This document shows, one piece after another, positions 8,123-63,661 of a stretch of 64,000 nt of DNA. The notes under the pieces were generated by a model. That model searched no databases. It saw only the letters and a program-made list of their open reading frames with translations, and was not told where the DNA came from. The stretch covers positions 5,360 to 69,359 of the forward strand of contig CAMNBZ010000008.1 in the NCBI GenBank assembly GCA_946533675.1, read 5' to 3'. How positions within the stretch are numbered: position 1 is the first letter of the stretch; the number at the start of each line of letters is the position of its first letter. Source of the stretch: an uncultured Verrucomicrobiota bacterium. GTDB lineage: Bacteria > Verrucomicrobiota > Kiritimatiellia > RFP12 > UBA1067. A program made the position numbers and the translations under genes.

Positions 8123-8131
8123 TGATATACT
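8123..8131 (+). promoter_or_regulatory. Extended -10 box TGATATACT
   Basis: Matches the window-wide consensus TTTGATAtAcTA. Lies 16-22 nt upstream of the candidate ATGs and is followed by GGAGGG. Confidence 0.55.
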
Positions 8132-8153
8132 ACCGCTGAAGGAGGGAATGAGA

Positions 8154-11100
8154 ATGCGGATGAAATTCTACAGAACGGCGGCGGTGCTTGCGGCGGCGCT
8201 CGCGGCGTGCGGACCGGCCGGGGCGATCAGCGTCGAGTCGGAGGCGATGCGCGCGAAGAAGGGCGTGCTGATTCTCCAGTGCGGCAGCGACTGGTGCGTC
8301 TCGGGCGAGTCGGTGCGCGGCGTCTTCGAAAGCACCGCGTTCAAGAAGGGCAAGGTCGCCCAGAAGTACGCGCTCGCGACGTACGACGAGATGGATCGTC
8401 CGACCGAGGCGGCGAAGAAGCGGAACGAGGACTGCCGGAGCCTGCTCATCCGCACGAAGCGCTTCCCCGCGATCACCTGCTACACGCCGGAGATGAAGGT
8501 CTTCGCGCAGATTGAAAATGTCCCGTACGACGTCGACGCCGAAAAGCTGTCGCGCGCGATCGCCCGGGTGACGAAGCGCAAGGACGAGGCGGAGGCGCTG
8601 TTCAAGAAGGCGGCGACGCTCACGGGCGCGGAGGCGGCCGACGCCTACGGGCAGGGGTTCGACATCCTCGCGGCGATGATGACGTCGAAGAATCTGACCT
8701 CGTTCCATTTCCGGGAGCTGACGACGGGCCCGCACGGCTGGCGCCGGGAGTGGGACGCGCTCACGCGGCTCGACGCGGGCGACCGGTACGGCTGGCTCGC
8801 GCACTTCCGCATGGACGAGTACGAGACCGTGCGGCTCGTCGAGAAGGTGACGAATCTGAAGGAGAGCTCGCGCAGCCAGGCGGAGGCGCTCGTCAAGAAA
8901 TACAAGGCGATCCCCGACGCGCACTTCTCGCCGAACCAGAAGCAGTGCGTCAAGGTGATGGAGTATGCGCTCGGCGCGAACGGGACGAACGGTTCGCTCG
9001 ACACCGTCGGCAAGCGGCTGATGAAGGAGGCGTACGCGCTCGGCGAGGACACGTTCTGGGGCCAGTTCGCGAAGGGCCGGCTGATGATGGACGGCGAGCA
9101 GCTGGAGGCGAAGCGCCCGCCGGCGGCGAAGGTGCGCCCGCGCCCGACGACTGGCTCGACGGGCATGCCGCCGACGTACATGATGGATCAGGTCAAGACC
9201 CGCCTCCGGAGCCTCAAGCCCGGCGCGCCGCTGACGGACGCGCAGAAGCTCGACGTCGCGCGCTACGCCGCGCTGCGGCTGATCGGACCGAAGGGCTGGA
9301 CGGATCTGTGCGCGCGCAAGGGCGGCACGCGGTTCATCAAGGCGTTCATGGACGACCGCGTCTGGCTGGAGGATTTCGCGTATTCGGGCGACTTCCCGCA
9401 GAAGAGCGGCGGCTGGAACGACGCGAGCGCGGGGCCGGGCGCGGGCGCGGGCGCGGCGCTCGCGCTGGAATCGCTCGTCTTCCAGGACGGCGGGCGCTGG
9501 ACGCCGTTCGAGAACGGCGCGTTCGCGGACAACGAGGGCCGCCGCTTCATGACGGCGCTCGCCATCAACTATCCCGACCGCGACGAGGCGTGGCAGGCGG
9601 ACGTGCTGGACGCCTACCGCGCGAGCGCGCTCGCCGAGCGGCTGCACAAATCCGCCTATTCGCAGCCCGTCTGGCTGTGGCGCTACGCGACGCACACGGG
9701 CCATCCCTCGTCGGGCACGCCCGACATGGCCGCGCAGCACCGCCACCTCGAACGGTTCGTGAACCTGCCCGAGCGCGAGTACGGCGGGACGTGCTGGATG
9801 ATCGTCTACCGGCTGAAGAACTGCTTCGGCGACTCGGTGCACGGGCCGTTCTACTACAAGGCGTGGGACCGGGCGGGCGCGTGGCCCAAGCGCCGCTATT
9901 CGCAGATCGTCGGCGGCGTCTGCGGCGAGCTGTCCAAGTTCGGCAGCGCGACGTCGAACGCGCACGGCCTGCCCTCGACGACCGTCGGCCAGCCGGGCCA
10001 CTGCGCCTATTCGCGCCGCCTGACCGACGGGCGCTGGGAGATCGACTACAGCGTGACGGGCCATTCGCAGCTCCATCTGTGCTTCTGGAACCATCACGCG
10101 TGGCAGTATGTCGCCGCGCTGGAGAGCACGTTCAACACCGACCGCGAGACGCGCCTCGCCGCCGAGCGCCAGCTGACGCTGGCGGCGCTGTCGGAGGACG
10201 CGGGCCGCGACGCGAAGGTCGTCGAGAAGTTCTACCAGAGCGCGTGCGTCGCGCACCGCGGCCACTACGGCGCGTGGAAGGAGTACGGCGCGTGGCTGAT
10301 GCGCACCAGCAGCCCGCTCGACAAGGTCAAGGTGTGGGTGCGCGGCTGCGCGCGCGGCCTGAAGGCGGGGCGGCAGCCGCTGTGGGACATTCTCACGCCC
10401 TACTTCGCGCGCGTCGCCCGCGAGAAGGGCAAGGCGGCACTGAGGGACGAGCTGATCGAGTTCGCGCCGCTGCTGAAGCAGGGCAGCGACCGGCTGCAGG
10501 AGGAGGCGGACTTCTCGACCGTGCTGAAAACGTGGGGCGAGGCGCTCGGCGGCGACGCGGAGATGCGCTATGACGTGCTCAAGGCGATGATGACCGCGCA
10601 GGCGGGCACGCGCAACTACTTCAGCCAGACGATGAGCTGGGGCAGCGAATTCTTCTCGAAGACGGCGCAGGGCGTGCAGACCTTCACCAGGTGCCTCGGC
10701 GAGGCGCTGGCGGCGGCCGACGCGGCGGACGCGAAGGGGAAGAAGGGCAAGGGCGGCGGCGCGTCCATCGACTTCGGGCCGCTCATCCTCGGCGCGTCCC
10801 GCAACGGCAACCGCGAGGCGTTCCAGCAGATGGCGAAGCTCCAGGCGAAGCTGTCGCCGCCGGGAACGCGCGAATCCGGCTACGGGAAGAGCGAATTCGG
10901 CGGCGAGCTCCTCTGCACGGACGGGATGCTCCGGACGTCCTCGACGTGCGGGCACGACCATCCCCAGAACTATCCGTTCGCGCTCGATCTGCCGCAGACG
11001 ACGTCCGGCGCGGCGTTCCACACCGACAGCGAGGAGTCGCCGTGGGCGGAGGTGACGCTGGCGGGGCCGTCGACGCTCACGGGTCTCGTCATCGACAACG

Positions 11101-11385: not shown

Positions 11386-11394
11386 TGATACAAT
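11386..11394 (+). promoter_or_regulatory. Extended -10 box TGATACAAT, 6 nt from the ATG (leaderless candidate)
   Basis: The -10 ends at 11394 and the ATG is at 11401. There is no room for an SD. Confidence 0.6.
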
Positions 11395-11400
11395 AGCCGC

Positions 11401-13644
11401 ATGAAACATCTGCTGCACCGCGGGGCCGCCGTCGCGCTGGCCGTCCTGTCCGTTCCGTGCGCCGTCGTCGCCGACGGCGGTTTCCGCGCGCCGCGCCTCG
11501 GCGTCGTGTGCGAGACGCCCGCGCAGGCGCGGCCGGGCGTCGCGAAGAGCCGCGCGTGGGAACAGTCGCTCCTCACCGGCAACGGCGCGATGGGCGCGCT
11601 GGTGCCGGGCGAGCTCGCGCACGAGGAAATCTTCCTTTCGCACGCGCGGCTGTTCCTCCCACGCGTCATGAACGGAAAGTATTTCGAACTCGGAAAATAC
11701 CGCGACAGGGCGCGCGCGCTCGCGCTCGCCGGGCGCGAAAGGGAAATCTGGGACGAAGTCATCCAGAAGGCGTCGGACGAAAGCGGCTATTCGTTCAGGC
11801 GCGATCCGTTCATGGGCGCCGTCAGCCTGATCATCGACACGCCGGACCTGCCGGCGTGGCGTGACGCGCAGGGCTACCGCCGCATGACGGACTTCGAGCG
11901 CGGCGAGTGTACGGTCAGGACGGACGACTACGAGCGGCGCCTCTTCGCCTCGCGCGTCGACGGCGTGATCGCGCTGCGTGTCAAGGATGCGCAGAAGCGG
12001 CCGTTCACCGCCCGGTTCGAGACGATCTCCAACGGCCGCCCGAGCGGCGATGCGGCCATCCAGCGCATCCGCGAGAAGGACGGCTACCTGTACTACCGCG
12101 TCGACTTCCGCAAGGAGAACGGGAAGAATCCGTTTCACGGCTACGAGGCGGTGGGTCTCCGGAAGGGCGACGAGGTGTTCGTCAAGATCTACCCGCTGCC
12201 GTTCGGCACCGACTCGCTGTTCGAGACGGCGAAGCGCGAACTGTCCGATGCGGCGAACATGGGCTATGCGCGGCTCCTCGAACGTCACGCGCCCGTCATG
12301 AAGGAACTGATGGGACGCGTCACGCTGGAGCTGCCCGACCGCGATCTCGTGCGCAAGTTCCACGCGGGACGCTACAACATCATTTCGTCGACCGGGCCGG
12401 GCGGCGTCCTGCCGAACTTGCAGGGACTGTGGGCGGGCAGCTGGTCCGCGCCGTACAACGGCAGCTACACCGTGGACGGCAACCTGCCGTGCGCGATCAG
12501 CTTCTGGACGCGCGGCAACACGCCGGAGTTCAACGAATCGCTTTACGCGTGGATCCGGCGCTACTACGACGACTTCCGGGAGGCGGCGCAGAAGGGGTAC
12601 AACGCGCGCGGCATCCATATTCCCGGACAGGTCACGACGACCGGGCTCGAAACCGCGTACTACCGCAACGTGGAGCTCATGTGGTGGCACGGCGGCGCGG
12701 GCTGGATGACGGGCTACCTCTGGCGCTGGTACGAGGCGACGCAGGACAGGGACGTGCTGGAGAAAGTCTATCCGCTGCTGAAGGACGCGGCGGACTACAT
12801 CTGCGACTGCCTGGAGGAGATGCCGGACGGCACGCTCGGCTTCGCGCCCGGGTATTCGCCGGAGAACGCGCCGCACGGCGACTTCCGTTCGCGGGGCGAC
12901 GTGATGGATCCCGATCTGCCGAAGGGCGGCTACTCGACCATGAACAATCCGACGATGGATATCTCCGTCGCCAAGCAGTCCATCGACTATGCGACGAAGG
13001 CCGCGCAGATTCTGAAGCGTGACGAGGGGAGTGTCCGCGAATGGGCGCAGAAGCGCGCGCGCCTGACGCCGTACAAGGTCTCGAAGGACGGCTTCTGGGC
13101 GGAGTGGCTCGTGCCGGATCCGCCGGACAACAACGCCCACCGCCACGTCTCGCACGTCTTCGCGCTCTATGACGAGGCACCGGCGGAGATTCTGACGAAC
13201 GCGGCGTTTGTCGCCGCGATCAAGAAGACGCTCGCGGCGCGCATGACGTTCCACGAGCGTGAGAAGCACATGGCGTTCGGCGTGACGCAGATCGGCTACG
13301 CGGCCGCGAAGGTCGGCGACGCGGCGGTGATGACGCGCGCGATCCGGCTCCTGCAGGAGACGTACTTCACCGACGCGCTCGGCACGCTGCACGATCCAGG
13401 CTGGCTCTTCAACATCGACATCTCCGGCGGCTTCCCCGGCATCATCGCCGACGCGCTCATCACGAAGGGACCGGACGGCGGCTTTCAGGTGCTGAACGCG
13501 AAACCCGCGTCCTGGACGAAGGGCCGCATCGCGGGGCTGCTGCTCCCGGGCGGCATCAAGGTCCAGAGTCTGTCCTGGCAGGGCGACAGCTACGAACTCG
13601 AACTTCTCCACCCCGACGGCCGCGTGACGGTCCAGCGTCGATAG
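11401..13644 (+). CDS. GH95-like glycoside hydrolase (alpha-L-fucosidase/galactosidase family)
   Basis: Signal peptide. LQGLWAGSWSAPYNGSYTVDGNLPCAISFW, NNAHRHVSHVFALYD and NIDISGGFPGIIADAL resemble GH95 conserved blocks. Size (747 aa) fits the family. Confidence 0.7.
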   Translation: MKHLLHRGAAVALAVLSVPCAVVADGGFRAPRLGVVCETPAQARPGVAKSRAWEQSLLTGNGAMGALVPGELAHEEIFLSHARLFLPRVMNGKYFELGKYRDRARALALAGREREIWDEVIQKASDESGYSFRRDPFMGAVSLIIDTPDLPAWRDAQGYRRMTDFERGECTVRTDDYERRLFASRVDGVIALRVKDAQKRPFTARFETISNGRPSGDAAIQRIREKDGYLYYRVDFRKENGKNPFHGYEAVGLRKGDEVFVKIYPLPFGTDSLFETAKRELSDAANMGYARLLERHAPVMKELMGRVTLELPDRDLVRKFHAGRYNIISSTGPGGVLPNLQGLWAGSWSAPYNGSYTVDGNLPCAISFWTRGNTPEFNESLYAWIRRYYDDFREAAQKGYNARGIHIPGQVTTTGLETAYYRNVELMWWHGGAGWMTGYLWRWYEATQDRDVLEKVYPLLKDAADYICDCLEEMPDGTLGFAPGYSPENAPHGDFRSRGDVMDPDLPKGGYSTMNNPTMDISVAKQSIDYATKAAQILKRDEGSVREWAQKRARLTPYKVSKDGFWAEWLVPDPPDNNAHRHVSHVFALYDEAPAEILTNAAFVAAIKKTLAARMTFHEREKHMAFGVTQIGYAAAKVGDAAVMTRAIRLLQETYFTDALGTLHDPGWLFNIDISGGFPGIIADALITKGPDGGFQVLNAKPASWTKGRIAGLLLPGGIKVQSLSWQGDSYELELLHPDGRVTVQRR

Positions 13645-13706: not shown

Positions 13707-13712
13707 TAAAAT
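13707..13712 (+). promoter_or_regulatory. -10 box TAAAAT, 6 nt from the ATG (leaderless candidate)
   Basis: TAGTAAAATAGCGGCATG; the ATG is at 13719. Confidence 0.5.
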
Positions 13713-13718
13713 AGCGGC

Positions 13719-16238
13719 ATGAAAATCAATTCTTCCTGCCTGTTTCTTTCCGCGCTGGCCGCCGTTTCTGTTTCCGTTGCCGTGTTGGCGGACGGCGGTC
13801 CCAATGCGTCTGCGGCCGTCGTCGGCGAACGTCTCGCCCTCGATGAATTCGCGGGCCGCGACACGCTCATGAACCGCGCGTGGCAGTTCCGGCTCGGCGA
13901 CGACGCGTCGTGGGCGGCGGTGGACTGCGACGACGCGCAGTGGCGGTGGCTCGACCTGCCGCATGACTTTCAGTTCGAGCTGCCGTGGGACAAGGGCGCG
14001 CGGCCGGCGCACGGCTACAAGCCGCTGAAGACCGCGTGGTACCGCCGCCACTTCACGGCCGATCCCGCCTGGCGCGGCAAGCGCGTCTTCGCGGAGTTCG
14101 AGGGCATCATGGCCGTGGGCGACGTCTTTCTGAACGGCGAGAAGATCGCCTCCACCGAGTACGGCTATCTCGGCTGCTGGGCGGAGCTCACCGCGCGGCT
14201 GAATTGGGACGGCGACAACGTGCTGGCCGTGCGCGCCGACTGCGGACGGCCGGGCGGCTCGCGCTGGTACACGGGCGGCGGCCTCGTGCGCGACGTGCAT
14301 CTCGTCGTGAAGAGCGCGGTGGCGGTCGCGCGCAACGGCTTCTCCATTACATCCGGCGTGACGGACGGCGCGGCGTTCGCGGACGTGACCGTGCAGCTCG
14401 ACGGCTATAGGGGCCAGGGCGGCCGGAATACGCTTGAAATTATACTTGAAATCTTCGATCCGGACGGCCAGCGCGTTGCGCGCGAAAGCGCCGTCGCGCC
14501 GTGGAGCAAGAAGGCGCATCAGGAGGTAGCGCTGCCGCGCGCGGCGATTCCCGCGCCGCAGCTCTGGGACATCGACGCGCCGAACCTCTACACCGCGACG
14601 GCGACGCTGAAGCTGAACGGCACGGTCGTGGACCGCGCGAAAGAGCGCTTCGGCATTCGCACCCTCGCATTCGACAGGGAATTCGGCTTCAAGCTGAACG
14701 GCCGCAAGGTGTTCCTCGCGGGAATGGCGAACCACGCGGACCTCGGCGCGCTCGGCGCGGCGGTGTTCGACCGAGCCATCGCGCGCCAGCTGCGCACGAT
14801 GAAGGCGTTCGGCTACAACGCCGTCCGCTGCTCGCACAATCCGTATTCGAAGAGCTTTCTGCGCCTCGCCGACGAAATCGGGCTGCTCGTCGTCGACGAG
14901 CTGATCGACAAGTGGACGACCGGCACGCATTACTGGAACGGACGCCGGCCGTTCATGGAGATCTGGCCGCAGCTGATCACGGAATGGGTGAAGCGCGACC
15001 GCAACCATCCGTCCGTCATCGCGTGGTCGCTCGGCAACGAGACGCAGATGCGCGAGGATCTCTGCGGCTTCGACACGGACGACTGGGGCGTCACCTCGTA
15101 CCGCATCTTCGACGCGCTCGTGAAGCGCTGGGACGCGACGCGCCCGACGACCGTCGCGATGTTCCCCGCGCGCGAAGGAGCGGTCACGCGCAAGGACCGC
15201 GGCTTCAACGACGACCCGAAGCCGCCGGAGCTGTCGCGCGTCACGGAGTTCGCGAGCTTCAACTACTGCTACGAGGACTATCCGTCCTACACGCGCCACG
15301 CGCCGGAGCTGAACATCTTCCAGTCCGAGGCGAGCGTCCACGCGCTCCAGCGCCCGTACGTCGCGATGGACCGCGCGCATGCCATCGGACTTTGCTGGTG
15401 GGGCGCGATCGCATACTGGGGCGAGTCGGACGGCTGGCCGAAGAAGGGGTGGTCGTATTCGTTCTTCGACCGGACGCTCGCGCCGTTCCCGACGGCCTAC
15501 CTCATCAAGTCGTTCCTCGTCTCCGAACCGATGGCGGAGATCGCCGTCGTCGAGCCCGCGAAGGGCGGCGAGGAAGTCGTCTGGAACGACATCAAGGTCG
15601 GGCGCATGAACGCGGTGAGCGACTGGACGTTCGACGAAGGGACGGTGCTGCCGGTCGTCTATGTCTATACGAACGCGGAGGAGGCGGAGCTGTTCGTGAA
15701 CGGTCGGTCGCGCGGCGTGAAGCGGAACAACGAGACCGATCCCAGGACGGCGCACGCGCTCCGATGGACGGATGTCGCGTACGAGCCCGGCCGGATCGAG
15801 GCCGTCGCGCGCACCGGCGGACGGGAGGTCGCGCGCCGCACGATCGAGACGGCGGGGGCGGCCGTGCGGCTCGCGCTGGCGGCGGAGAACGCGGACGACT
15901 GGACGGGCGACGGGCAGGATCTTCTCTACGTGCGCGTGACGGCGGTCGACGCGGCGGGGCGGCGCGTGCGCGCGGCGAACGCGGATGTCACGTTCGAGGT
16001 GTCCGGCGCGGCGACGCTGCTCGCGGTCGACGACGGCGACGAGCGCACGCATCTCCTCTTCCGCAACGTGAACGAAAAGCCGCTCCGCGACGGCTCGCTG
16101 CTCGTCATCCTGCGCGCGAAGACGCAGCCCGGCGCGGTGACGCTCACGGCGACCGCCGCCGCGTTCGCGCCGCAGACGGCGACCTTCACGACGAAAGAAC
16201 CGTCCGCCGCGCGTCAAACGCGCGGCCGCAGCCCTTGA
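13719..16238 (+). CDS. GH2 family glycoside hydrolase (beta-galactosidase/beta-glucuronidase-like)
   Basis: Signal peptide. N-terminal sugar-binding block (WRWLDLPHDF), NAVRCSHNPY, and the acid/base motif WSLGNETQ. Confidence 0.88.
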   Translation: MKINSSCLFLSALAAVSVSVAVLADGGPNASAAVVGERLALDEFAGRDTLMNRAWQFRLGDDASWAAVDCDDAQWRWLDLPHDFQFELPWDKGARPAHGYKPLKTAWYRRHFTADPAWRGKRVFAEFEGIMAVGDVFLNGEKIASTEYGYLGCWAELTARLNWDGDNVLAVRADCGRPGGSRWYTGGGLVRDVHLVVKSAVAVARNGFSITSGVTDGAAFADVTVQLDGYRGQGGRNTLEIILEIFDPDGQRVARESAVAPWSKKAHQEVALPRAAIPAPQLWDIDAPNLYTATATLKLNGTVVDRAKERFGIRTLAFDREFGFKLNGRKVFLAGMANHADLGALGAAVFDRAIARQLRTMKAFGYNAVRCSHNPYSKSFLRLADEIGLLVVDELIDKWTTGTHYWNGRRPFMEIWPQLITEWVKRDRNHPSVIAWSLGNETQMREDLCGFDTDDWGVTSYRIFDALVKRWDATRPTTVAMFPAREGAVTRKDRGFNDDPKPPELSRVTEFASFNYCYEDYPSYTRHAPELNIFQSEASVHALQRPYVAMDRAHAIGLCWWGAIAYWGESDGWPKKGWSYSFFDRTLAPFPTAYLIKSFLVSEPMAEIAVVEPAKGGEEVVWNDIKVGRMNAVSDWTFDEGTVLPVVYVYTNAEEAELFVNGRSRGVKRNNETDPRTAHALRWTDVAYEPGRIEAVARTGGREVARRTIETAGAAVRLALAAENADDWTGDGQDLLYVRVTAVDAAGRRVRAANADVTFEVSGAATLLAVDDGDERTHLLFRNVNEKPLRDGSLLVILRAKTQPGAVTLTATAAAFAPQTATFTTKEPSAARQTRGRSP

Positions 16239-16265
16239 CTTGGAGTGGGCTCCAAGTGGTATAAT
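16235..16265 (+). promoter_or_regulatory. Sigma70-type promoter: TTGACT, 19-nt spacer, TGGTATAAT
   Basis: -35 at 16235-16240, extended -10 at 16257-16265. A ~30-nt leader carries GAAAGGAAAA before ATG 16301. Confidence 0.55.
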
Positions 16266-16300
16266 ACACGATCACTGATTCAGACGAAAGGAAAACAGAA

Positions 16301-16897
16301 ATGAACAAACTGCTCCAAGGAGGATTGATCATGCTCGGACTCATGGCAGGCTGCTCGCCGGAAGCGGCGACGGCGGCGGAACCGGTCGCGGTGGCGAAGG
16401 GGAAGGTCGCGGTCGTCTATTTCTCGTGGAGCCCGGACGGCAACACGCGTTTCGCCGCCGAGACGATCGCGAAGAAGGCCGGAGCCGCGCTCTTCGAGAT
16501 CAAGGCCGAGAAGCCCTACGCGAGCGATTTCCGCGCGTGCTGCGACGAGGCGAAGCCGGAATGCAACGGCAAGACGCTCCGTCCGATCCAGCCCGTCGCG
16601 GGGCTCGACCTCGCGCAGTACGACGTCGTCTTCGTCGGCACGCCCAACTGGTGGGGCACGATGGCGCCGCCCGTGCGCACGTGGCTGACGCAGAATCTCG
16701 CCGCGCTCAAGGGCAAGACCGTCTGCCTCTTCCAGACGCACGGCGGCGGCGGGATGCAGCGCGTGGGCAGGGAGTTCGCGGAGGTCGTGGGCGACGCGGC
16801 GACGGTGCTGCCGCCCAAGGCATTCGCCGGTGCGTCGGTCAAGTCGAACGTCGAGGCGCTGGACGCGTTTGTCGCGGCGCGCATCGCCGTCCGCTAA
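16301..16897 (+). CDS. Flavodoxin-like fold lipoprotein
   Basis: Lipobox LMAGC. VVYFSWSPDGNTRFAAETIAKK and VFVGTPNWWGTMAPPV are typical of the short flavodoxin-like family. Confidence 0.8.
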   Translation: MNKLLQGGLIMLGLMAGCSPEAATAAEPVAVAKGKVAVVYFSWSPDGNTRFAAETIAKKAGAALFEIKAEKPYASDFRACCDEAKPECNGKTLRPIQPVAGLDLAQYDVVFVGTPNWWGTMAPPVRTWLTQNLAALKGKTVCLFQTHGGGGMQRVGREFAEVVGDAATVLPPKAFAGASVKSNVEALDAFVAARIAVR

Positions 16898-17069: not shown

Positions 17070-17078
17070 TGCGATAAT
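17070..17078 (+). promoter_or_regulatory. Extended -10 box TGCGATAAT, 7 nt from ATG 17086
   Basis: Leaderless candidate. ATG 17110 is preceded by AAGGAGA and is an alternative start. Confidence 0.5.
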
Positions 17079-17085
17079 CGTACGC

Positions 17086-19707
17086 ATGAACACAGGAAAG
17101 GAGAATTTGATGATGTTGGACGTGAAAGAGACGGTGCGGGCGGGGGCCGCCATCTCGGCTGCGTTGACGGCGCTCGTCGCGGCCGCCGGGCCGGCGAACG
17201 CGCCATGGCAGGACGAGACGGTGTCGTCGATCAACCGACTTCCGGCGCGGAGCGTCGTCGCGCCGCGGTCGCCGGAAGGACGCAGCTCTGTTCTGTCGCT
17301 CGACGGCGCATGGGACTTCGTGTGGACGAACGGAGACGAGCGGCGCGCCGGGACGATCACCGTGCCCGGCTGCTGGCAGCTCCAGGGCGATTACGATCCG
17401 CCGCAGTACACGAACATGACGTATCCGTTCGCGTTCGATCCGCCGAACGTGGAAAGCGAGCCGCCTGCCTGGTGGACGGCGCGGCGCTTCCGCAATCCGC
17501 ACGGCTTCTACCGGCGTTCGTTCCGCGTGCCGGCCGACTGGCGCGGACGCGACGTGACGCTCCGGCTGAACGGCTATTCGAGCGCGGTGTTCGTGCGGCT
17601 GAACGGACGCGACGTGGGCTATGGCGAGGACGGGCGGCTGCCGAGCGAATGGGACCTGACGCCGTACCTCGCCGACGGCGAGAACGCGCTTGAGATCGAG
17701 GTGCTCAAGTTCTCCGACGGCTCCTATCTGGAAGACCAGGACTTCTGGCGGCTGAGCGGACTGTTCCGGTCCGTCGAGCTCGTCGGCGAAGCGAAGGGCG
17801 GTCTGCGCGATTTTTCCGTGTCGACCGAGCTTTCCGACGATTATTCGCGCGCCGAGGTTTCGCTCGCGGTGACGGGCGGCGCCGACTGCGCATGGGAGAT
17901 TTTCGATCCTGACGGTCGGTCTGTCGGCGCGGCGAAGGGCGGAGAGAAGATCACCGTCGCGCAGCCGCGTCTCTGGAAGGGCGGCGAAGGAATTCTCTAC
18001 ACGGCCGTTGTCAAGGCGAACGGAGATGTGTTCGCGCGCCGCTTCGGGATGCGCCGGGTGTCGATCGAGGACGGCGTGCTCAAGGTCAACGGCGCGCGCA
18101 TCGTGATCCACGGCGTGGATCGCCACGAGACGAGTCCGACCGGCGGCTACGCGATGACGCGGGCAGAGATGGAGCGCGACATCGCCGTCATGAAGGAATA
18201 CGGCATCAACGCCGTTCGGACCAGCCACTATCCGAACAGCGCGTACTGGTACGATCTGTGCGACGAAAACGGCATCTTCGTCGTGGCGGAGGCGAACGTC
18301 GAGTGCCACGGCAGCGGCCATCCGTACGGCACGGAGACGATGTCGCACCGGCCGAGCTGGCGCGATGCGATCGTGGAGCGCAACCTCCGGCAGGTCGCCG
18401 TGCTCAAAGACCACCCGTCGATCATCGTGTGGAGCCTCGGCAATGAAAACGGGAAAGGGCCGAACATGCTGGACGCCTACCGGGCGGTCAAGGCGGCGGA
18501 TCCGACGCGGCCGGTGCAGTACGAAGGCGTGCTGAATCCGTACGGCGAGCAGAAGTTCGATGTCGAGGGGACGGACATCATCTGTCCGATGTACGAACAT
18601 CCCGATTCGATCAGGAGGGCGCTGGCGAAGTTCAAGTCGCGTCCGTTCATCCTGTGCGAGTTCTGTCATTCGATGGGCAACGCGGACGGAAACTTCGGCG
18701 AGTACATGGCGCTCATCGACGCGTTTCCGAATTTCCAGGGCGGCTTCATCTGGGACTTCGCGGACCAGGGGCTGGCGGGACGCGACGGGAAGCTCAAATA
18801 CGGGGGTGACTTCGGCGACCAGCCGAATGACGGGGCGTTCTGCTGCAACGGCGTTTTCGACGCTTTCCGGCGTCCGCACCCCGGCGCGTTCGAGGTCGCG
18901 TGGTGGTATCGCGGCAGAGCGCACGGCGCCACGGCGGAAAAGCTGCGTGCCGCCGCGCGTGCCGCCGGTCGCGGCGGATGTGCCGCGCCCGCGTGTCCGG
19001 GCGAAGACGTGCTGGCGTCCCTGCGTCTGAACTTCTGGCGCGCGCCGACGGCGAGCGACAACGGCTGGAACATGACGCGCGTCTGTGCGCCCTGGCGGCA
19101 GGCGACCGAGTCGCAGACGCTTCCCGAAGGATGCGTGACAAATCTTTCGGTCACCGCAACGGACGGTGGCGCGTATGACGTCGTCTTCGAGCTGTCCGTG
19201 CCCGAGGACGCGGCCTTTCTGCCGCGCGTCGGCCTGACGTTCCGCGTCCGGCGCAACGGCGACGACACGGTGTCGTGGCACGGGCGCGGACCGTGGGAGA
19301 ACTATCCCGACCGCAAGGATTCCGCGGAAGTCGGCGACTGGACGCTGCGTCTCGCGGAGCTGAACGACAGCCGCTATATCCGTCCGAGCGAGATGGGTTA
19401 CAGGACAGACGTCACGCGCCTTCGTGTCGCCGGTTTTGAATTCGCCGGAGACGGCTTCGGCTTCAACGTCTGGCCGTGGACGCAGGAAGCAATCGAAAAG
19501 GCGAAACATGCGGAGGAGCTGGCGGAAGATCCCGCGTGGCTGACCGTCAATATCGACTGCGCGATGATGGGCGTGGGCGGAGACGACGCGTGGGGCGCGC
19601 GTCCGCACGCGGCCTATCTGCTCAAAGGCGCGAAAACATACGTGCTGAAGTTTACGATTCTCCCATGCGGTACAACCTGTCGCCGGGGCTGGACAGATTC
19701 AAACTGA
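17086..19707 (+). CDS. GH2 beta-galactosidase, LacZ-like but compact (domain 4 apparently missing)
   Basis: WSLGNENGKGPN, ILCEFCHSMGNADGNF (compare E. coli ILCEYAHAMGNSLGGF), FIWDFADQG, and C-terminal NYPDR..NIDCAMMGVGGDDAWG. Start uncertain among 17050, 17086 and 17110. Confidence 0.88.
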   Translation: MNTGKENLMMLDVKETVRAGAAISAALTALVAAAGPANAPWQDETVSSINRLPARSVVAPRSPEGRSSVLSLDGAWDFVWTNGDERRAGTITVPGCWQLQGDYDPPQYTNMTYPFAFDPPNVESEPPAWWTARRFRNPHGFYRRSFRVPADWRGRDVTLRLNGYSSAVFVRLNGRDVGYGEDGRLPSEWDLTPYLADGENALEIEVLKFSDGSYLEDQDFWRLSGLFRSVELVGEAKGGLRDFSVSTELSDDYSRAEVSLAVTGGADCAWEIFDPDGRSVGAAKGGEKITVAQPRLWKGGEGILYTAVVKANGDVFARRFGMRRVSIEDGVLKVNGARIVIHGVDRHETSPTGGYAMTRAEMERDIAVMKEYGINAVRTSHYPNSAYWYDLCDENGIFVVAEANVECHGSGHPYGTETMSHRPSWRDAIVERNLRQVAVLKDHPSIIVWSLGNENGKGPNMLDAYRAVKAADPTRPVQYEGVLNPYGEQKFDVEGTDIICPMYEHPDSIRRALAKFKSRPFILCEFCHSMGNADGNFGEYMALIDAFPNFQGGFIWDFADQGLAGRDGKLKYGGDFGDQPNDGAFCCNGVFDAFRRPHPGAFEVAWWYRGRAHGATAEKLRAAARAAGRGGCAAPACPGEDVLASLRLNFWRAPTASDNGWNMTRVCAPWRQATESQTLPEGCVTNLSVTATDGGAYDVVFELSVPEDAAFLPRVGLTFRVRRNGDDTVSWHGRGPWENYPDRKDSAEVGDWTLRLAELNDSRYIRPSEMGYRTDVTRLRVAGFEFAGDGFGFNVWPWTQEAIEKAKHAEELAEDPAWLTVNIDCAMMGVGGDDAWGARPHAAYLLKGAKTYVLKFTILPCGTTCRRGWTDSN

Positions 19708-23537: not shown

Positions 23538-23614
23538 CGCGCGGCGGAAGAGGCGCGTTTACTTCTGGAGGCGGCGGCCCTACACTTTCGGGTAGGGCCG
23601 CGGCGGGGGAAGTA

Positions 23615-23623
23615 TGATATACT
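23615..23623 (+). promoter_or_regulatory. Extended -10 box TGATATACT, 7 nt from the ATG (leaderless candidate)
   Basis: GTATGATATACTATTGCGCATG; the ATG is at 23631. Confidence 0.6.
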
Positions 23624-23630
23624 ATTGCGC

Positions 23631-26600
23631 ATGAAAATGAAATTCCTTGCCTTCCTGTGCGGTGTCGGCCTCGCGTCGGGCGCGTTCGCCGAGGTCTACA
23701 ACATGAACGTCGACTGGAAGTTCTCCAAGCTCAATTGGGGCCGAGGCCTTCAGGCGGCGGTCGACGGCAACCTCCAGAACGGCCGCCCCGTCTACGCGCC
23801 GGACTACGACGATTCCGCCTGGGAGACGGTCAGCGTGCCGCATCCTGTCAACGCGCACGACACGTACGACAACCACGCGAGCGACGCGGGCGAGGCGTCG
23901 ATGTTCCGCGGCTGGATGGCGTACCGCAAGCGCCTCACGATTCCCGCCGGGCGTCACTTCTTCCTCGAATTCGAGGCGATCCGCCAGACGCAGTATGTCT
24001 ACGTGGACGGCCGGCTCGTCGGCTTCTACGAAGCGGGCACCGCGCCGACGGGCTACGACCTGACGCCGTTCGTCACGCCCGGCCGCCCGGCGCTCGTCTG
24101 CGTTCTCACCGACAGTTCCTCGGGGCGCGGCATGAAGGAGTATTCCGCTGAATCGGCGGACGAGCCGGGCGACTGGAAGGGCACGGCCTACCAGTGGAAC
24201 GGCAGCGACTTCAATCCCGTGCAGGGCGGGCTCACGGGCAACGTGCGCCTCCACGTCAAGGCGAACGACGCCTACCTCACGCTGCCCTTGTGGGCGAACC
24301 TGAAGACGACGGGCGTCTACGTGTGGGCGGACGATTTCGATCTCGCGAAGGGTGCGGCGACGATCCACGTCGAAGCCGAGGTCGCGGGCGCGGCGAAGCA
24401 GATCGCGTTCGCGTTCGACGGCGGTGCCCGGCTGGGGGCGATCGACAGCCGCACGGACGGCCGCACGTTCGTCGCGGTCGCGCGGGCGACGAACCTGACG
24501 TTCTGGTCGCCGGACACGCCGTTCCTCTACGACGTCACGGTGCGGCTCCTCGCGGACGGCGCGCGCGTGCTGGACGAGACGACGGTGCGCACGGGCTTCC
24601 GCCAGGTCGGCTTCGCCCGCGACGCGGGCGTGACGATCAACGGCCGGCCGACGTGGCTGCCCGGCTACGCGCAGCGCTCGACGAGCTCGTGGGCGGCGAT
24701 CGGCGTCGCGCCCGACTGGCTGAACGACTGCGACATGGAGCTCGTGCGCCGCTCGAAGGCGAACTTCATCCGCTGGATGCACGTCACGCCCAAGCCGTCG
24801 CTCGTGCGCGCGTGCGACAAGGCGGGCGTCGTGAACGTGTGCCCCGCGGGCGACAAGGAGAACGACACGTCGGGCCGGCAGTGGGAGCAGCGCGTCGAGG
24901 CGATGCGCGAGGCGATCGTCTACTTCCGCAACGCGCCGTCCGTCTTCTTCTGGGAGGCGGGCAACAACCAGATCACGCCCGCGCACATGAGGGAGATGCG
25001 CGAGCTGAAGGAAGCGCTCGATCCGCACGGCGGGCGCTTCATGGGCTGCCGCACGCTTCAGACGGCCGAGCAGGTCGCCGAGGCGGAGTATGTCGGCACG
25101 ATGATCCACCGTCAGGACGTGAAGGCCGCCGCCGCGATGGCGAAGACGGGCCGCTGGCTGCCGATCATGGAGACGGAGTACTGCCGCGAGGAATCGGCGC
25201 GGCGGCTCTGGGACCGCTTCACGCCGCCGGACTTCAACTTCGTCTGCACGCGCCTGGCGAGCGGCGCGAAGGAGTGGATGTACAACTGCTACGACCTGAC
25301 GCAGGAGGAGTTCGCGCTCTCGAACGTCGACGCGTCGGACGGCTACAGCTACTTCTACGGCAACCGCGCGGCGGGCCGCCTCGGCCGGTACTACAGCGCG
25401 TGCGCGATGCTCTGCTGGACCGACTGCAACCAGCACGGGCGCAACTCCAACACGGAGAACTGCCGTTCGTCGGGGCGCGTCGACGCGGTGCGCATCCCGA
25501 AGGAGAACTTCTACGTCCACCAGTGCCTCTATTCGCAGACGCCGCAGATCAAGATCCTCGGCCACTGGAACTACCCGAAGAAGACGGCGGACAGCTACTG
25601 GTACAACGAGAAGGTGAACGACGGCAGGAAGATCACGTACACGGGCGCGCGCACGCAGCGCGACCCGACACGCAAGACGGTCTACGTGATCGGCTCGCTT
25701 CAGGTCGCGTCGATCGAGCTGTTCGTCAACGGCCGCTCGCAGGGCGTCGCCACCGAACCGGCGAAGGGGCTCTTCGCGTTCGCGTTCCCGGACGTGGACG
25801 TGACGGAGGCGGGCGCGGTCGAGGCCGTCGCGAAGGATGCGGCGGGCAACGAGATCGCGCGCGACCGCATCGAGACGGTCGGCGACGCGGCGAAGCTCGT
25901 CCTGGGCGCGCACGTCGGACCGGCGGGCTGGCGCGCGGACGGCGCGGACATCGCGGTCGTCGACGTGAAGCTCGTCGACGCGCAGGGCCGTGTGCTGCCG
26001 CTCGCGGACGACCGCGTGACGTTCACGCTCACGGGCGACGCGACGTTCATGGGCGGCTGGAACTCGGGCACGTTCGACGCGACCTCGCCCGTGGGCAAGG
26101 ACTGGGTGAATCTGGAGCAGGGCGTCAACCGCGTCTTCCTCAAGGCGTCGCGCACGGCGGGCAAGGTGTCGCTCGCGGCGACGTGCGCGAACGGCCTGCG
26201 CGCGGCGGTGGAGCTGACGAGCGTGCCGGTCGCGGTCGCGGGCGGGCTCGCGCGCGAGATGCCGCAGGAGCGGCCGAAGAACGCGAAGAACTACACGGTG
26301 GCGCATCCCGTGCCGCCGGTGCGCGACCTGGAGGGCCGGGCGGGCGCGGTGCCGTACGCGGTGCGCGTCAACGGCACGCCGGTCGTGTTCCCGAAGAAGA
26401 CGCAGGCGTTCAAGCCCGATGCGTCGACGGGCGTCGTCTGCCCGTACGAGCCCGTGCTCGCGGCGCTCAAGGCGGCGGGCGCGGACGTGACGTACACGTA
26501 CAGCGCGAAGAAGATCCCGGCGAACAAGAAGTATCTCCGCCGGCTCTCGCCCTCGCCGTACCGGCCGACGCTGACGTACACGGCGGGCGGCAAGGAGATC

Positions 26601-26892: not shown

Positions 26893-26921
26893 TTGCGCAA
26901 CACCAATTTTATTGGTATATT
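26893..26921 (+). promoter_or_regulatory. Sigma70-type promoter: TTGCGC, 17-nt spacer, TGGTATATT, with an AT-rich upstream tract
   Basis: -35 at 26893-98, extended -10 at 26913-21. The T-run and AT tract at 26861-26890 resemble an UP element. Confidence 0.6.
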
Positions 26922-26976
26922 ATGCGCATACCCACCAAGGAACAGTTCTGCGGGGGTTCAAAAAGGATCAAAAATC

Positions 26977-27279
26977 ATGGCGAAGAAAGAAGTCATCCCG
27001 ACAACCAAGAGCGGTATCATGGCGGCCCTCGCGGAGGCGGCCGGCATCAGCAAGAAGCAGGCCGTCGCGGTCTACGAGAAGCTCGTCGACATCGCGATCA
27101 AGGGCGCGAAGCAGGAGGAGAAGGGCCTCATGCTCCCCGGCGTCGGCAAGGTCAAGCTGATCAAGCGTCCGGCGCGCATGGGCCGCAACCCCGCGACCGG
27201 CGAGCAGATCAAGATCAAGGCGAAGAAGGTCGTCAAGATCGTCGCGTGCAAGGCGTTCAAGGACGCGGTCCTTGGCTGA
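26977..27279 (+). CDS. hup: HU/IHF-family nucleoid DNA-binding protein
   Basis: 100 aa. MAKKEV..KSGIMAALAEAAGISKKQA..LPGVGKVKLIKRPARMGRNPATGEQIKIKAKKVVK matches the HU fold signature R.GRNP.TGE.I.I. Confidence 0.9.
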   Translation: MAKKEVIPTTKSGIMAALAEAAGISKKQAVAVYEKLVDIAIKGAKQEEKGLMLPGVGKVKLIKRPARMGRNPATGEQIKIKAKKVVKIVACKAFKDAVLG

Positions 27280-28964: not shown

Positions 28965-28973
28965 TGGTATAAT
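28965..28973 (+). promoter_or_regulatory. Extended -10 box TGGTATAAT, 8 nt from the dnaX ATG (leaderless candidate)
   Basis: GATTTGGTATAATTACCGCACATG; the ATG is at 28982. Confidence 0.6.
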
Positions 28974-28981
28974 TACCGCAC

Positions 28982-30430
28982 ATGGAAGAAGTGCAGCACA
29001 TCGCCCTGCCGCTCAAGTACCGCCCGATGACGTTCGACGACGTGATCGGGCAGGAGCATGTCGTCAAGACGCTGCGCCACGCGATCGAGGCGAACCGCAT
29101 CGCCAACGCCTATCTCTTCATCGGCCCGCGCGGCATCGGCAAGACGACGATGAGCCGCATTTTCGCGAAGGCGCTCAACTGCCTCAGCCCCAACGGCGTG
29201 GAGCCGTGCGGCGCGTGCGTCAACTGTCGCGAGATCGCGGCGGGCCGCTCGCTCGACGTCACCGAGCTCGACGCCGCCTCGCACAACAAGGTCGACGACG
29301 TCAAGCCGATCATCGAGTCGGTGCAGTTCAAGCCCGCGAACGGGAAGTTCAAGATCTTCATCATCGACGAATGCCACATGCTCTCCAACGCGGCGTGGAA
29401 CGCGCTCCTGAAGACGCTCGAAGAGCCGCCGCCGCACGTCCGGTTCATCTTCGCGACGACGGAGGGCGACAAGGTGCTCGCGACGATCGTCAGCCGCTGC
29501 CAGCGCTTCGACCTGCGGCGCATCCAGACGAACGACATCGTTTCGCGCCTGAGGTACATCTGCGAAAAGGAGAAGATCGACGCGGAGGAGGATGCGCTCC
29601 TCGCCATCGCGCGCGGCGCGGAAGGCGGCATGCGCGACGCGCTCTCGTCGCTCGACCAGCTCATTTCCTTCAAGGGCGACAAGGTGACGGAGGCGGACGC
29701 GCTCGGCGTGTTCGGGCTCGTCTCGCGCCGCGCGCTCGAAACGCTCGCGCAGGCGATCCTGACGGGCGACGTCGCGCAGATCCTCTCGTCCATCGAGATG
29801 TTCGATTCGTCGGGCAAGAACATGCGGCGGCTCGCGGGCGAACTCCTGCAGCACTTCCGCAACCTTGTCGTCGTGCAGGCGCTGGGACCGGCGTCCAAGT
29901 CGCTGACGGCGACGCCCGACCAGGTGAAGGTGCTCGTCGAACAGGCCAAGGGCATCGACGCGGGGCGCGTCTTCCGGATCTGCGATCAGCTCGCGGACAT
30001 GGAGGACAAGCTCCGCTACGTGCTGAGCGTGCGCACGCTCATTGAAATGTCGCTCATCCGCGCGAGCCGCATCGCGACGACGGCGACGATCGAGGAGCTG
30101 CTGCGCGTCGTGCGGGCGCTGAAGAACGCCGGCGGCGGCGCGGTGGAGCTGCCGACGGCGGCACCGGCCGCGCCGGTCGCGCCCGTGGCGAAGCCGGTGC
30201 CGGTCGCGCCGAAGCCCGCCGCTGCATCGCCTGCGCCCGCTGCATCGCCTGCGCCCGCTGCATCGCCCGCGCCCGCTGCGCCGGTCGCGCCGCAACCGCC
30301 GCCCGCGCCGGAACCGCCGGCCAAAAGTTTTGCCAACCGAAGCGATATCCTGAACGACCCGGTGCTGAACGAGCTGCTGAATTCGCTGCCGGGCGCGACG
30401 ATCGCCGACATCAAGGAGAAAAGACCATGA
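28982..30430 (+). CDS. dnaX: DNA polymerase III subunit gamma/tau (short, 482 aa)
   Basis: FDDVIGQEHVVKTLRHAIEANRIANAYLFIGPRGIGKTTMSRIFAKALNC, a Zn module (CGACVNC), and IIDECHML. Confidence 0.92.
   Translation: MEEVQHIALPLKYRPMTFDDVIGQEHVVKTLRHAIEANRIANAYLFIGPRGIGKTTMSRIFAKALNCLSPNGVEPCGACVNCREIAAGRSLDVTELDAASHNKVDDVKPIIESVQFKPANGKFKIFIIDECHMLSNAAWNALLKTLEEPPPHVRFIFATTEGDKVLATIVSRCQRFDLRRIQTNDIVSRLRYICEKEKIDAEEDALLAIARGAEGGMRDALSSLDQLISFKGDKVTEADALGVFGLVSRRALETLAQAILTGDVAQILSSIEMFDSSGKNMRRLAGELLQHFRNLVVVQALGPASKSLTATPDQVKVLVEQAKGIDAGRVFRICDQLADMEDKLRYVLSVRTLIEMSLIRASRIATTATIEELLRVVRALKNAGGGAVELPTAAPAAPVAPVAKPVPVAPKPAAASPAPAASPAPAASPAPAAPVAPQPPPAPEPPAKSFANRSDILNDPVLNELLNSLPGATIADIKEKRP
30221..30274 (+). 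repeat. 18-bp in-frame tandem repeat x3 (AASPAP) in the dnaX linker
   Basis: GCTGCATCGCCTGCGCCC repeated three times, with one substitution in the third copy. Confidence 0.85.
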
Positions 30431-39203: not shown

Positions 39204-39233
39204 TTGACGGCGGGGGCGGAAAAATGGTATAAT
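39204..39233 (+). promoter_or_regulatory. Sigma70-type promoter: TTGACG, 18-nt spacer, TGGTATAAT, for the pseudopilin operon
   Basis: -35 at 39204-09, extended -10 at 39225-33. TAAGGAGC SD precedes ATG 39266. Confidence 0.65.
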
Positions 39234-39265
39234 TTCCCTCAACAGCTAATCTAAGGAGCAACGAA

Positions 39266-39694
39266 ATGAAGAGCAACGAGGAAAAGTCGGTCGCCGCCGC
39301 ACTGCGCGCGGGCTTCACGCTGATTGAGATTCTGGTCGCGGTCGCGATCATCGGCATCCTGGGCACGGTCGCGGTGATGAACATCACGTCCAACCTCGAA
39401 AAGGCCAAGGTGACCGCCGCGAAGGAAGCCGTCAACAACATCAAGGCGGCCGTGACGAACTACTACCTTCAGTACAAGAAGTACCCGAGCGACCTCAACG
39501 CGCTCATCGAGGCCAAGGGCGACGACGAGCCGGTCCTCGACGGCGGCGAAGGCGCGCTCGAGGATCCGTGGGGCACCGAATACAAGTACGAGAAGAACGG
39601 CAAGAAGTTCGCCGTCATCTCGGCGGGCCCCGACGGCGACTTCGGCACCGAGGACGACATCCGCAGCGACAAGGTCGCGAAGTCGTCGAACTAA
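39266..39694 (+). CDS. gspG: Type II secretion major pseudopilin GspG
   Basis: Prepilin motif AG/FTLIEILVAVAIIGIL; DPWGTEYKYEKNGKKFAVISAGPDGDFGTEDDI is typical of the GspG C-terminus. Confidence 0.9.
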   Translation: MKSNEEKSVAAALRAGFTLIEILVAVAIIGILGTVAVMNITSNLEKAKVTAAKEAVNNIKAAVTNYYLQYKKYPSDLNALIEAKGDDEPVLDGGEGALEDPWGTEYKYEKNGKKFAVISAGPDGDFGTEDDIRSDKVAKSSN

Positions 39695-43953: not shown

Positions 43954-43962
43954 TGGTATACT
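43954..43962 (+). promoter_or_regulatory. Extended -10 box TGGTATACT
   Basis: AATTTGGTATACTA consensus, with a ~30-nt leader carrying CAGGAGC before ATG 44000. Confidence 0.55.
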
Positions 43963-43999
43963 ATGCACATCGTTTGATTCACCCCAACAGGAGCAACAG

Positions 44000-45097
44000 A
44001 TGGCAACGGCAAGTTATGACGTCGTCGACTTCGGCACGACCAAGTACGGCGAGCACGCGAAGAAGTACATCCTCAAGGGCGCCGGCGGCGTCGTCCTCGA
44101 AGTGAGCGACTACGGCGGGAAGGTCGTGCGCCTCTTCACCCCCGACCGCGACGGCCGGATGAAGGACGTCGTCGTGGGCTTCGACGATCCGTCGGGCTGG
44201 GACAACGGCGACCCCTACTGGGGCTGCATCATCGGCCGCTACGGCAACCGCATCGCGGCCGGCAAGTTCACGATGGGCGGCGTCGAGTACCGGCTCCCCG
44301 CGCTCAACAACGCGCCCGCCGGCATCGGCTGCAACCTGCACGGCGGCGCGCGCGGCTGGGACGCGTACGTGTGGGGCGCGGAGCCGTTCGTCAAGGGCGA
44401 TGACGTGGGCGTCGTCTTCACGCACGTCTCGCCCGACGGCGACGAGGGCTTCCCCGGCCGCGTCGCGGTCAAGGTGACGTACACGCTGACGGCGGCGAAC
44501 GTCTGGCGCGTCGACTACGAGGCGGTGCCGGACAGGGAGACGCCCATCAACATGACGCAGCACGTCTACTTCAACTTCAAGGGCGAGGCCGGCGGCACGA
44601 TCGAGGATCACGTCCTGACGATCGCGGCCGAAAGCTTCACGCCGACCGACCCGGGCCAGATCCCGACGGGCGAGGTGCGCAAGGTCGCGGGCACGCCGTT
44701 CGATTTCCGCAAGGGCATGCGCATCGGCGAGATGATCAACGCCAACGACGCCGACCTCGAGATCGGCAAGGGCTACGACCACAACTGGGTGCTGGACGGC
44801 GGCATCATGGCGGGCGGCGCGGGCGGCCTCATCTTCGCGGGCTCGCTCGTCTGCCCGCTCAACGGCCGCTCCGTCGAGGTCTGGACGACCGAGCCGTGCC
44901 TGCAGGTCTACACCGCGAACTGGGCGAGCTACGACCAGAAGGCGAAGGGGGGCGAGCACCTCTCCTTCCGCTGCGGCGTGGCGCTCGAGACGCAGCACGC
45001 GCCCGACTCGCCCAACCGCCCCGAGTGGCCGACGACGTTCGTCAAGGCGGGCGCGACGTACCGCACGACGACGGAGTTCCGCTTCGGCGTCGCCTGA
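44000..45097 (+). CDS. galM: Aldose 1-epimerase (galactose mutarotase)
   Basis: GRYGNRIAAGKFTMGGVEYRLPALN..NLHGG, FPGRVAVKVTYTL, and VALETQHAPDSPN. Confidence 0.9.
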   Translation: MATASYDVVDFGTTKYGEHAKKYILKGAGGVVLEVSDYGGKVVRLFTPDRDGRMKDVVVGFDDPSGWDNGDPYWGCIIGRYGNRIAAGKFTMGGVEYRLPALNNAPAGIGCNLHGGARGWDAYVWGAEPFVKGDDVGVVFTHVSPDGDEGFPGRVAVKVTYTLTAANVWRVDYEAVPDRETPINMTQHVYFNFKGEAGGTIEDHVLTIAAESFTPTDPGQIPTGEVRKVAGTPFDFRKGMRIGEMINANDADLEIGKGYDHNWVLDGGIMAGGAGGLIFAGSLVCPLNGRSVEVWTTEPCLQVYTANWASYDQKAKGGEHLSFRCGVALETQHAPDSPNRPEWPTTFVKAGATYRTTTEFRFGVA

Positions 45098-45269: not shown

Positions 45270-45278
45270 TGATATACT
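45270..45278 (+). promoter_or_regulatory. Extended -10 box TGATATACT, 7 nt from the ATG (leaderless candidate)
   Basis: ATTTGATATACTACGCGCAATG; the ATG is at 45286. Confidence 0.6.
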
Positions 45279-45285
45279 ACGCGCA

Positions 45286-50875: not shown

Positions 50876-50884
50876 TGATAAACT
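50876..50884 (+). promoter_or_regulatory. Extended -10 box TGATAAACT, 6 nt from the ATG (leaderless candidate)
   Basis: CTTTTGATAAACTATCGTCATG; the ATG is at 50891. Confidence 0.55.
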
Positions 50885-50890
50885 ATCGTC

Positions 50891-53935: not shown

Positions 53936-53943
53936 CGCTCGGT

Positions 53944-53973
53944 ATTTTACTCTATTTGCGTCCGCGCGGTCAA
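53944..53973 (-). promoter_or_regulatory. Minus-strand promoter: TTGACC, 18-nt spacer, TAAAAT, 8 nt from the regulator ATG (leaderless candidate)
   Basis: The reverse complement reads CTTGACCGCGCGGACGCAAATAGAGTAAAATACCGAGCGATG. Confidence 0.55.
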
Positions 53974-54028: not shown

Positions 54029-54037
54029 TGATAGACT
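54029..54037 (+). promoter_or_regulatory. Extended -10 box TGATAGACT, 8 nt from the ATG (leaderless candidate)
   Basis: ATATGATAGACTATTCGTTGATG; the ATG is at 54046. Confidence 0.55.
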
Positions 54038-54045
54038 ATTCGTTG

Positions 54046-57491: not shown

Positions 57492-57500
57492 TGATATAAT
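57492..57500 (+). promoter_or_regulatory. Extended -10 box TGATATAAT
   Basis: AAATGATATAATATTGG. The ~95-nt leader contains TCTCTCAA x2 and AAAAGGAGAAAGGAAG before ATG 57603. Confidence 0.55.
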
Positions 57501-57602
57501 ATTGGAAACTTGATCTAAGGAAAATCTCTCAATCTCTCAATCAAGAACACCTTCAAACAGTTTCTCTACCAACTATCCGAAAAGGAGAAAGGAAGCAACA
57601 AC

Positions 57603-63618: not shown

Positions 63619-63627
63619 TGATAAAAT
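63619..63627 (+). promoter_or_regulatory. Extended -10 box TGATAAAAT
   Basis: AAATTTGATAAAATACC, then a leader with AAAGGAGA before ATG 63662. A palindrome CCGTCATGTTTGGATGACGG lies ~45 nt upstream. Confidence 0.5.
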
Positions 63628-63661
63628 ACCGAATACGGAATTGCAAAGGAGAACGGAACGC

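Follow-up and report, generated by a model that had tools for sequence, protein, structure and literature searches.

The window analysed here is a stretch of 64,000 nucleotides (contig CAMNBZ010000008.1, positions 5360-69359) from the metagenome-assembled genome (MAG) of an uncultured rumen/gut Kiritimatiellia bacterium, and it contains a recurrent promoter-like box that repeatedly ends only a few nucleotides before a start codon. Analysis of the window together with the whole assembly (2.61 Mb, 93 contigs, 65% GC) leads us to propose that this box is the extended -10 element of housekeeping sigma-70 promoters and that about 240 genes are expressed from it as leaderless mRNAs, the remaining promoters with this box giving rise to a leader with a Shine-Dalgarno (SD) sequence. 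Judged from sequence, we assign this reading a probability of about 85%.

The original prediction had suggested a genome-wide histogram of the distance between box and ATG, and such a histogram revealed a clear peak. For an analysis independent of any gene caller, each of the 1163 TGNTANNNT boxes was connected to the first ATG that opens an open reading frame (ORF) of at least 80 codons. The distances of 6, 7, 8, 9 and 10 nt are represented by 56, 63, 31, 34 and 28 sites, respectively, and the other bins hold about 5 sites each, nearly all of them between 0 and 10. Intergenic DNA, which makes up 12.5% of the genome, contains 854 of the 1163 boxes. Within the window, where the extended -10 sequence TGnTAnnnT was scored as the full box, 28 boxes were observed versus 15.4 expected. 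The intergenic regions of the window are short (60-110 nt) and relatively AT-rich, so that any AT-rich word would be enriched near starts, and the peak could in principle reflect nothing but the crowding of such words into the small non-coding fraction of a GC-rich genome. This explanation is most improbable, as the controls refute it. When TGNTANNNA, which has the same composition, or the reversed motif was used instead, the distance profile was flat and without a peak, and the pattern TGNTATAMTN{6,10}ATG matched 184 times in the genome as compared to 0 matches of the reversed pattern. A box followed by an ATG at 6-8 nt occurs six times in the window, whereas the mean in 300 first-order Markov simulations was 0.37, with at most 3 in any of them. 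Finally, a genome of the same family and with the same GC content (G123, genus g12, 66% GC) has a box 4-13 nt upstream of only 0.7% of the genes in a 200-kb sample, compared with 19% in the genome studied here.

The same picture emerged with a simple, home-made codon-usage gene caller, which predicted 1839 genes covering 87% of the genome and on which the following gene counts rest. The distance between box and gene start is bimodal, with 57, 65, 30, 34 and 29 sites at 6, 7, 8, 9 and 10 nt. Altogether 239 boxes end 6-13 nt before a gene start and only 5 at 14-19 nt, a spacing that exceeds what a leaderless start allows but leaves no room for an SD sequence. The second, broad mode extends from 20 to 70 nt. 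SD strength, whose plot against box distance had been proposed as a further check, follows this division: an SD sequence is nearly absent at close boxes and present in about 75% of the genes in the second mode. If leaderless-type genes are defined by a box 4-13 nt before the chosen start, 242 genes (13%) belong to this class, and 241 of them lack any SD 4-mer. Among the other 1597 genes, 981 have an SD 4-mer or 5-mer and GGAG peaks sharply at -12/-11, which indicates that the SD mechanism is in use in the remaining genes. We used this positional peak to judge SD usage because the anti-SD sequence cannot be read without a 16S rRNA gene; none was found when we looked for it in the MAG, and five family members gave only a 5' fragment. 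The arrangement is concentrated at the first genes of transcription units (188 of 755, about 25%) as compared to internal genes (54 of 1084, 5%). Of the extended -10 promoters that could be recognised within 300 nt of a gene, about 46% belong to the leaderless type, again as estimated with the home-made caller. The predicted coexistence of two promoter classes, one in which 6-10 nt separate box and ATG and one with the same box plus an SD leader, therefore holds genome-wide.

Many genes without SD sequence and an A/T-rich word just before the start are also characteristic of Bacteroidota and of the genomes assigned to group B by GeneMarkS-2. The box is A/U-rich and placed like a ribosome-binding signal, and it might thus act as a non-SD translation signal within a longer 5' untranslated region, with transcription starting further upstream. 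We regard this as very unlikely. In group B every gene, also inside an operon, is preceded by the signal, and a promoter function is impossible for it, whereas the box described here is biased to first genes, where it is five times commoner than at operon-internal genes. Since a translation signal should precede internal genes too, this bias speaks against such a role. Furthermore, the identical box together with its discriminator also precedes, by 20-100 nt, genes equipped with an AGGAG of their own, the SD sequence is clearly used in the rest of the genome, and spacings of 14-19 nt are nearly missing. The box also has the invariant T-A---T and the TG of a sigma-70 extended -10 element, with a TTG at -35 spacing.

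These features are in line with the extended -10 (TGn) promoters of sigma-70 and with the -16 TRTG motif of Gram-positive bacteria. As in these promoters, the TG is located one base upstream of a TAnnnT hexamer, the -35 element is weak or dispensable, and region 3.0 of RpoD contains the His/Glu pair. The consensus of the box is wTnTGaTAtAmTa, and about one in two leaderless-type sites reads TGATATACT. A TTG 20-21 nt upstream of the TG, corresponding to a 17-18-bp spacer to the hexamer, is present in about 20% of the cases; otherwise the -35 region carries little, which fits extended -10 promoters. The TG-contacting motif of RpoD reads IPVHMIETINR here and IPVHMIETINK in the four relatives compared, and the -35-contacting motif is RERIRQIE. 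Unlike in the known promoters of this type, the extended form is dominant here, and about half of the promoters that can be recognised combine it with a leaderless start.

The sequence around the start codon also resembles a transcription start site. In sigma-70 promoters the start site, 7-8 nt past the -10 hexamer, usually shows a purine at +1 preceded by a pyrimidine at -1. Where the box lies 6-7 nt from the ATG, 84% of the sites have a C directly before the start codon and 94% a pyrimidine, while SD-led genes have C in 36% (Fisher p = 6e-23), and CATG is the most frequent tetramer at this position (59 and 60 of the 1163 boxes versus about 4 expected). The six bases after the box are identical in leadered and leaderless promoters (A, T/C, n, C, G, C), and in the leadered set A rises at positions 7-9, where the leaderless set has its ATG. 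We infer both a transcription start at the ATG and leaderless translation. In the proposed mechanism the box wTnTGaTAtAmTa would serve as extended -10 element of housekeeping sigma-70 promoters and would end 6-13 nt before the start codon at about 240 genes, corresponding to about 13% of all genes and about 25% of first genes. RNA polymerase should initiate at the A of the ATG or a few nucleotides from it. The resulting mRNA would either lack a leader or carry a very short one (about 5 nt at most) and would be devoid of an SD sequence, and the 5'-terminal AUG would be recognised directly for translation. The other promoters would employ the same box 20-100 nt upstream of the gene in combination with an AGGAG SD sequence.

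All this presupposes that the ATG next to the box is indeed the start codon. It is conceivable that the box is a promoter but that the true start codons are located further downstream, in short-leadered mRNAs or in leadered mRNAs without SD sequence. One site in the window fits such an arrangement, that of the GH2 beta-galactosidase (17070..17112, plus strand), which consists of TGCGATAAT with a GATAAT hexamer, 7 nt, ATG 17086, AAGGAG and an in-frame ATG at 17110. This SD-led start 24 nt downstream is equally good, and the public record for this sequence contains the start at 17110 and not the one at 17086. A dual start seems possible at this gene, as related public calls show proteins of both 873 aa and 865 aa. 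In addition, public gene calls take another start in three of eight window genes; proteins beginning at the box-proximal ATG of 23631, 28982 and 54046 are absent from the public protein collection, so the public gene callers must have chosen a different start. As a general explanation, downstream starts are nevertheless very unlikely. A downstream in-frame start with an SD sequence within 90 nt exists in only 31 of the 242 leaderless-type genes (13%), fewer than in SD-led controls (22%). Signal-peptide-like N-termini are found in 40% of the proteins when translated from the box-proximal ATG and in 35% of the SD-led genes; this value falls to 13% if the next in-frame ATG is used. The N-terminus of DnaX including the KYRP motif requires the proximal ATG (28982), which is the first start codon of the ORF and places KYRP at residues 12-15, close to its usual place in other DnaX proteins. 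Moreover, the sharp ATG peak at 6-7 nt with a C at -1 would have no reason if this ATG were unused.

We therefore retain the leaderless interpretation, although the ambiguous start at 17086 and the deviating public calls count against it, as do three further points. The start choice of our gene caller included a bonus for the box, which makes the caller-based counts partly circular; the caller-free histogram is free of this circularity and shows the same peak. About 100 genes have spacings of 9-13 nt; their mRNAs likely carry 2-6 leader nucleotides and would not be leaderless in the strict sense. Finally, read-through from upstream promoters could add leadered isoforms.

In the window, all nine box-to-ATG arrangements listed in the original prediction are present with spacings of 6-8 nt. 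The claim of a regular box applies to six of them, which have the full TGnTAnnnT sequence; it does not apply to two others, which show TAAAAT without TG, and the site at 17086 described above is ambiguous. The products are a GH95-family glycosidase, three GH2-family enzymes, two other putative hydrolases, DnaX, RNase HIII and a PBP-AraC regulator. The GH95-family glycosidase (11401-13644) is preceded by the extended -10 element TGATACAAT (promoter 11386..11403, plus strand; full box 11386-11394) and a 6-nt spacer; its ATG at 11401 is used by the public gene calls, and the N-terminus MKHLLHRGAAVALAVLS resembles a signal peptide. The following GH2-family enzyme (13719-16238) has a TAAAAT without TG and a 6-nt spacer (13707..13721, plus strand), and the public calls agree with this start. 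Upstream of a GH2-like protein (23631-26786) the extended -10 element TGATATACT is separated by 7 nt from the ATG (23615..23633, plus strand; full box 23615-23623), and the dnaX gene (28982-30430) has TGGTATAAT with an 8-nt spacer (28965..28984, plus strand; full box 28965-28973). The gene for RNase HIII (rnhC, 45286-46335) is again preceded by TGATATACT and a 7-nt spacer (45270..45288, plus strand; full box 45270-45278). Among 15 members listed out of the 50 in the RNase HIII cluster, 13 have a length of 349 aa, including the NCBI-annotated MBQ8125905.1, and two have 348 aa. A putative glycosidase (50891-52774) shows TGATAAACT with a 6-nt spacer (50876..50893, plus strand; full box 50876-50884). 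On the minus strand, the PBP-AraC hybrid regulator (52778-53935) has a TAAAAT without TG 8 nt before its ATG (53933..53949). Its promoter stands back to back with that of a 599-aa protein (54046-55845), for which TGATAGACT and an 8-nt spacer were found (54029..54048, plus strand; full box 54029-54037).

The second class, with the same box 22-102 nt upstream of the start and an AGGAG in between, was likewise recovered at the seven other units named in the prediction, all of them on the plus strand. The unit at 8154/8160 (8123..8162) has TGATATACT followed by AGGAGG and the ATG at 8154/8160, and the unit at 16301/16331 (16257..16333) has TGGTATAAT followed by AGGA and ATG 16301 or by AGGAGG and ATG 16331. 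In the other cases the box is connected to the ATG by a leader of defined length: TGGTATATT with 55 nt containing AGGA for 26977 (26913..26979), TGGTATAAT with 32 nt for 39266 (39225..39268), TGGTATACT with 37 nt for 44000 (43954..44002), TGATATAAT with 102 nt for 57603 (57492..57605) and TGATAAAAT with 34 nt for 63662 (63619..63664), the last four containing AGGAG. Another element at 33531-33552, TGTATAAT, in which the TG abuts the hexamer directly, lies 11 nt before ATG 33550 of a 161-aa ORF, in an intergenic stretch with an unusually high AT content (33440-33500), and might represent a promoter with a short leader.

Some promoters carry an additional upstream element. The 14-mer CCCGwwCGGGTAGk, which contains the palindrome CCCG-nn-CGGG, is found at 23583-23596, 50844-50857 and 53998-54011 and at about 10 promoters genome-wide. 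In 9-10 of these promoters the distance from the beginning of its CGGGTA to the downstream TG of the extended -10 element is exactly 26 nt, which places the centre near -42. The three copies in the window belong to promoters of glycosidase-type genes, next to the gene of the PBP-AraC regulator. The element resembles a class II activator site, as would be shared by the members of a small regulon.

To follow the arrangement beyond this genome we analysed dnaX orthologues and searched whole genomes of relatives. The DnaX relatives originate from rumen, horse and human-gut MAGs labelled Kiritimatiellae/Kiritimatiellia or, loosely, Verrucomicrobia/Lentisphaerae. At 79 orthologous loci (65-99% protein identity) a stricter count revealed a TGnTAnnnT box 4-13 nt before an in-frame start codon in 49 cases; nearly all of the 49 read TGnTATAAT, and 43 are located at 6-9 nt. 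The non-coding sequence around the boxes differs between loci, and other dnaX loci have an SD-type leader (for example L016, L023, L050 and L076). With slightly looser classes, the DnaX tree of 80 rows including the window copy contains 52 leaderless-type, 11 SD and 17 members with neither, and these states need at least 20 changes. Three loci on this tree come from records titled Lachnospira hominis (L042), Azospirillum sp. 51_20 (L048) and Lachnospiraceae bacterium (L063). Their dnaX genes are 67-69% identical to the window gene and nested among Kiritimatiellia. These bins are probably mislabelled or contaminated.

For the whole-genome search the pattern TGNTATAMTN{6,10}ATG was used with the reversed pattern as control. 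In the own family, genera g10, g11 and g96 have 57-161 hits and genera g12, g97 and g98 have 6-16. Within the same order, family f10 shows 38-74 hits in genus g13, 39 in g100 and 3 in g14, while family f9 has 88 and family f6 has 10. Nothing comparable was found in about 130 genomes from other orders of the class and about 170 genomes from other classes of the phylum, except for G239. This genome of another class (family f62, genus g109) has 43 matches versus 1 in the control, which is the sole clean excess outside the class, and its genus-mates show far fewer matches. A complete genome of 3.1 Mb from another order (G034) yielded 119 hits, but with a GC content of 44% and no spacing peak in a 240-kb sample we consider these as compositional noise. 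Corresponding 200-kb samples of G113, G133 and G027 have the box 4-13 nt ahead of 10%, 8% and 1.6% of their genes, respectively; the values from the samples of the own genome and G123 are given above. The G123 sample (loci L093-L102) contains 41 loose box matches, and none of them has the consensus TGnTATAAT. The trait is thus limited to some genera and families of one Kiritimatiellia order.

An altered RpoD was considered as cause of the leaderless-rich clade and rejected, as regions 3.0 and 4.2 are the same in rich (own, G113, G133) and poor (G123, G027) genomes. The sole difference among the five is one Lys/Arg exchange at the end of region 3.0, and apart from this residue the recognition motifs of G123 are those of the window genome despite its scarce boxes. 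On balance we lean towards the view that a sub-clade adopted a near-perfect extended -10 element (TGATATAMT) together with leaderless expression in a quarter of its units, that sister genera of the same family, GC content and RpoD motifs did neither, and that orthologues, for instance those of dnaX, would have flipped between the leaderless and the SD state at least 12 times.

Computational work has firmly documented leaderless expression itself, in roughly a fifth of bacterial genomes. One survey found leaderless genes, marked by a Pribnow box some 10 nt ahead of the start codon, in 207 of 953 bacterial genomes, and the lineages named in its main text do not include Verrucomicrobia, Planctomycetes or Chlamydiae; switching of orthologues between SD-led and leaderless state is also described there (Zheng et al., 2011, PMC3160421). 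GeneMarkS-2 assigned 1028 of 4769 bacteria, mostly Actinobacteria and Deinococcus-Thermus, to its group C, in which 25-50% of the operons are leaderless (Lomsadze et al., 2018, PMC6028130). Among human-gut species bins, 717 of 4930 are group C. We found no literature linking leaderless expression or the mapping of transcription start sites to Kiritimatiellia, and nothing relevant for Verrucomicrobia and Planctomycetes; the one paper in which leaderless genes and Kiritimatiellia are both mentioned makes no connection between them.

The genome studied here shares several sequence features with group C, namely a -10 box peak at 6-10 nt, a concentration at first genes and a leaderless-type share of about 25% of these, and the motif before all genes that distinguishes group B is not seen, since only 5% of internal genes have it. 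Like the group C or TA-led genomes of Mycobacterium, Streptomyces and Deinococcus, it combines a high GC content with a Pribnow-type box 6-8 nt from the start of first operon genes, no SD sequence at leaderless genes and an SD sequence at internal and leadered genes. The leaderless share of about 25% of the units corresponds to the lower edge of the range for group C, and orthologues alternate between both states, as is also described by Zheng et al. (2011). There are also differences. The main texts of the papers on these genomes name no Kiritimatiellia, a lineage of the Planctomycetes-Verrucomicrobia-Chlamydiae (PVC) group. The box here is a near-perfect extended -10 element, while Actinobacteria typically have a weaker TANNNT, and the trait occurs patchily in a single order instead of throughout a phylum. 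Leaderless expression as a major mode is supported for this genome, but judged from the pattern search it is a mode neither of the PVC group nor of the class as a whole. It is the known leaderless architecture of group C, in a lineage for which we found no published description.

The finding accordingly reveals no new mechanism but a known expression architecture in a new lineage with a sharp phylogenetic boundary. One practical consequence is that gene finders which expect an SD sequence can misplace starts in such MAGs. For an uncultured, polysaccharide-degrading gut lineage it provides a simple promoter model that lends itself to testing, and within the window glycoside hydrolase genes make up many of the leaderless units. 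If the proposed history of the sub-clade is true, the leaderless mode would have been gained or lost recently and within sharp phylogenetic limits outside of Actinobacteria and Deinococcus, and the group would offer a natural comparative system for the drivers of the switch between leaderless and SD-led expression. The patchiness among close relatives with the same sigma determinants may in any case make these bacteria suitable for comparative studies on the gain and loss of leaderless initiation.

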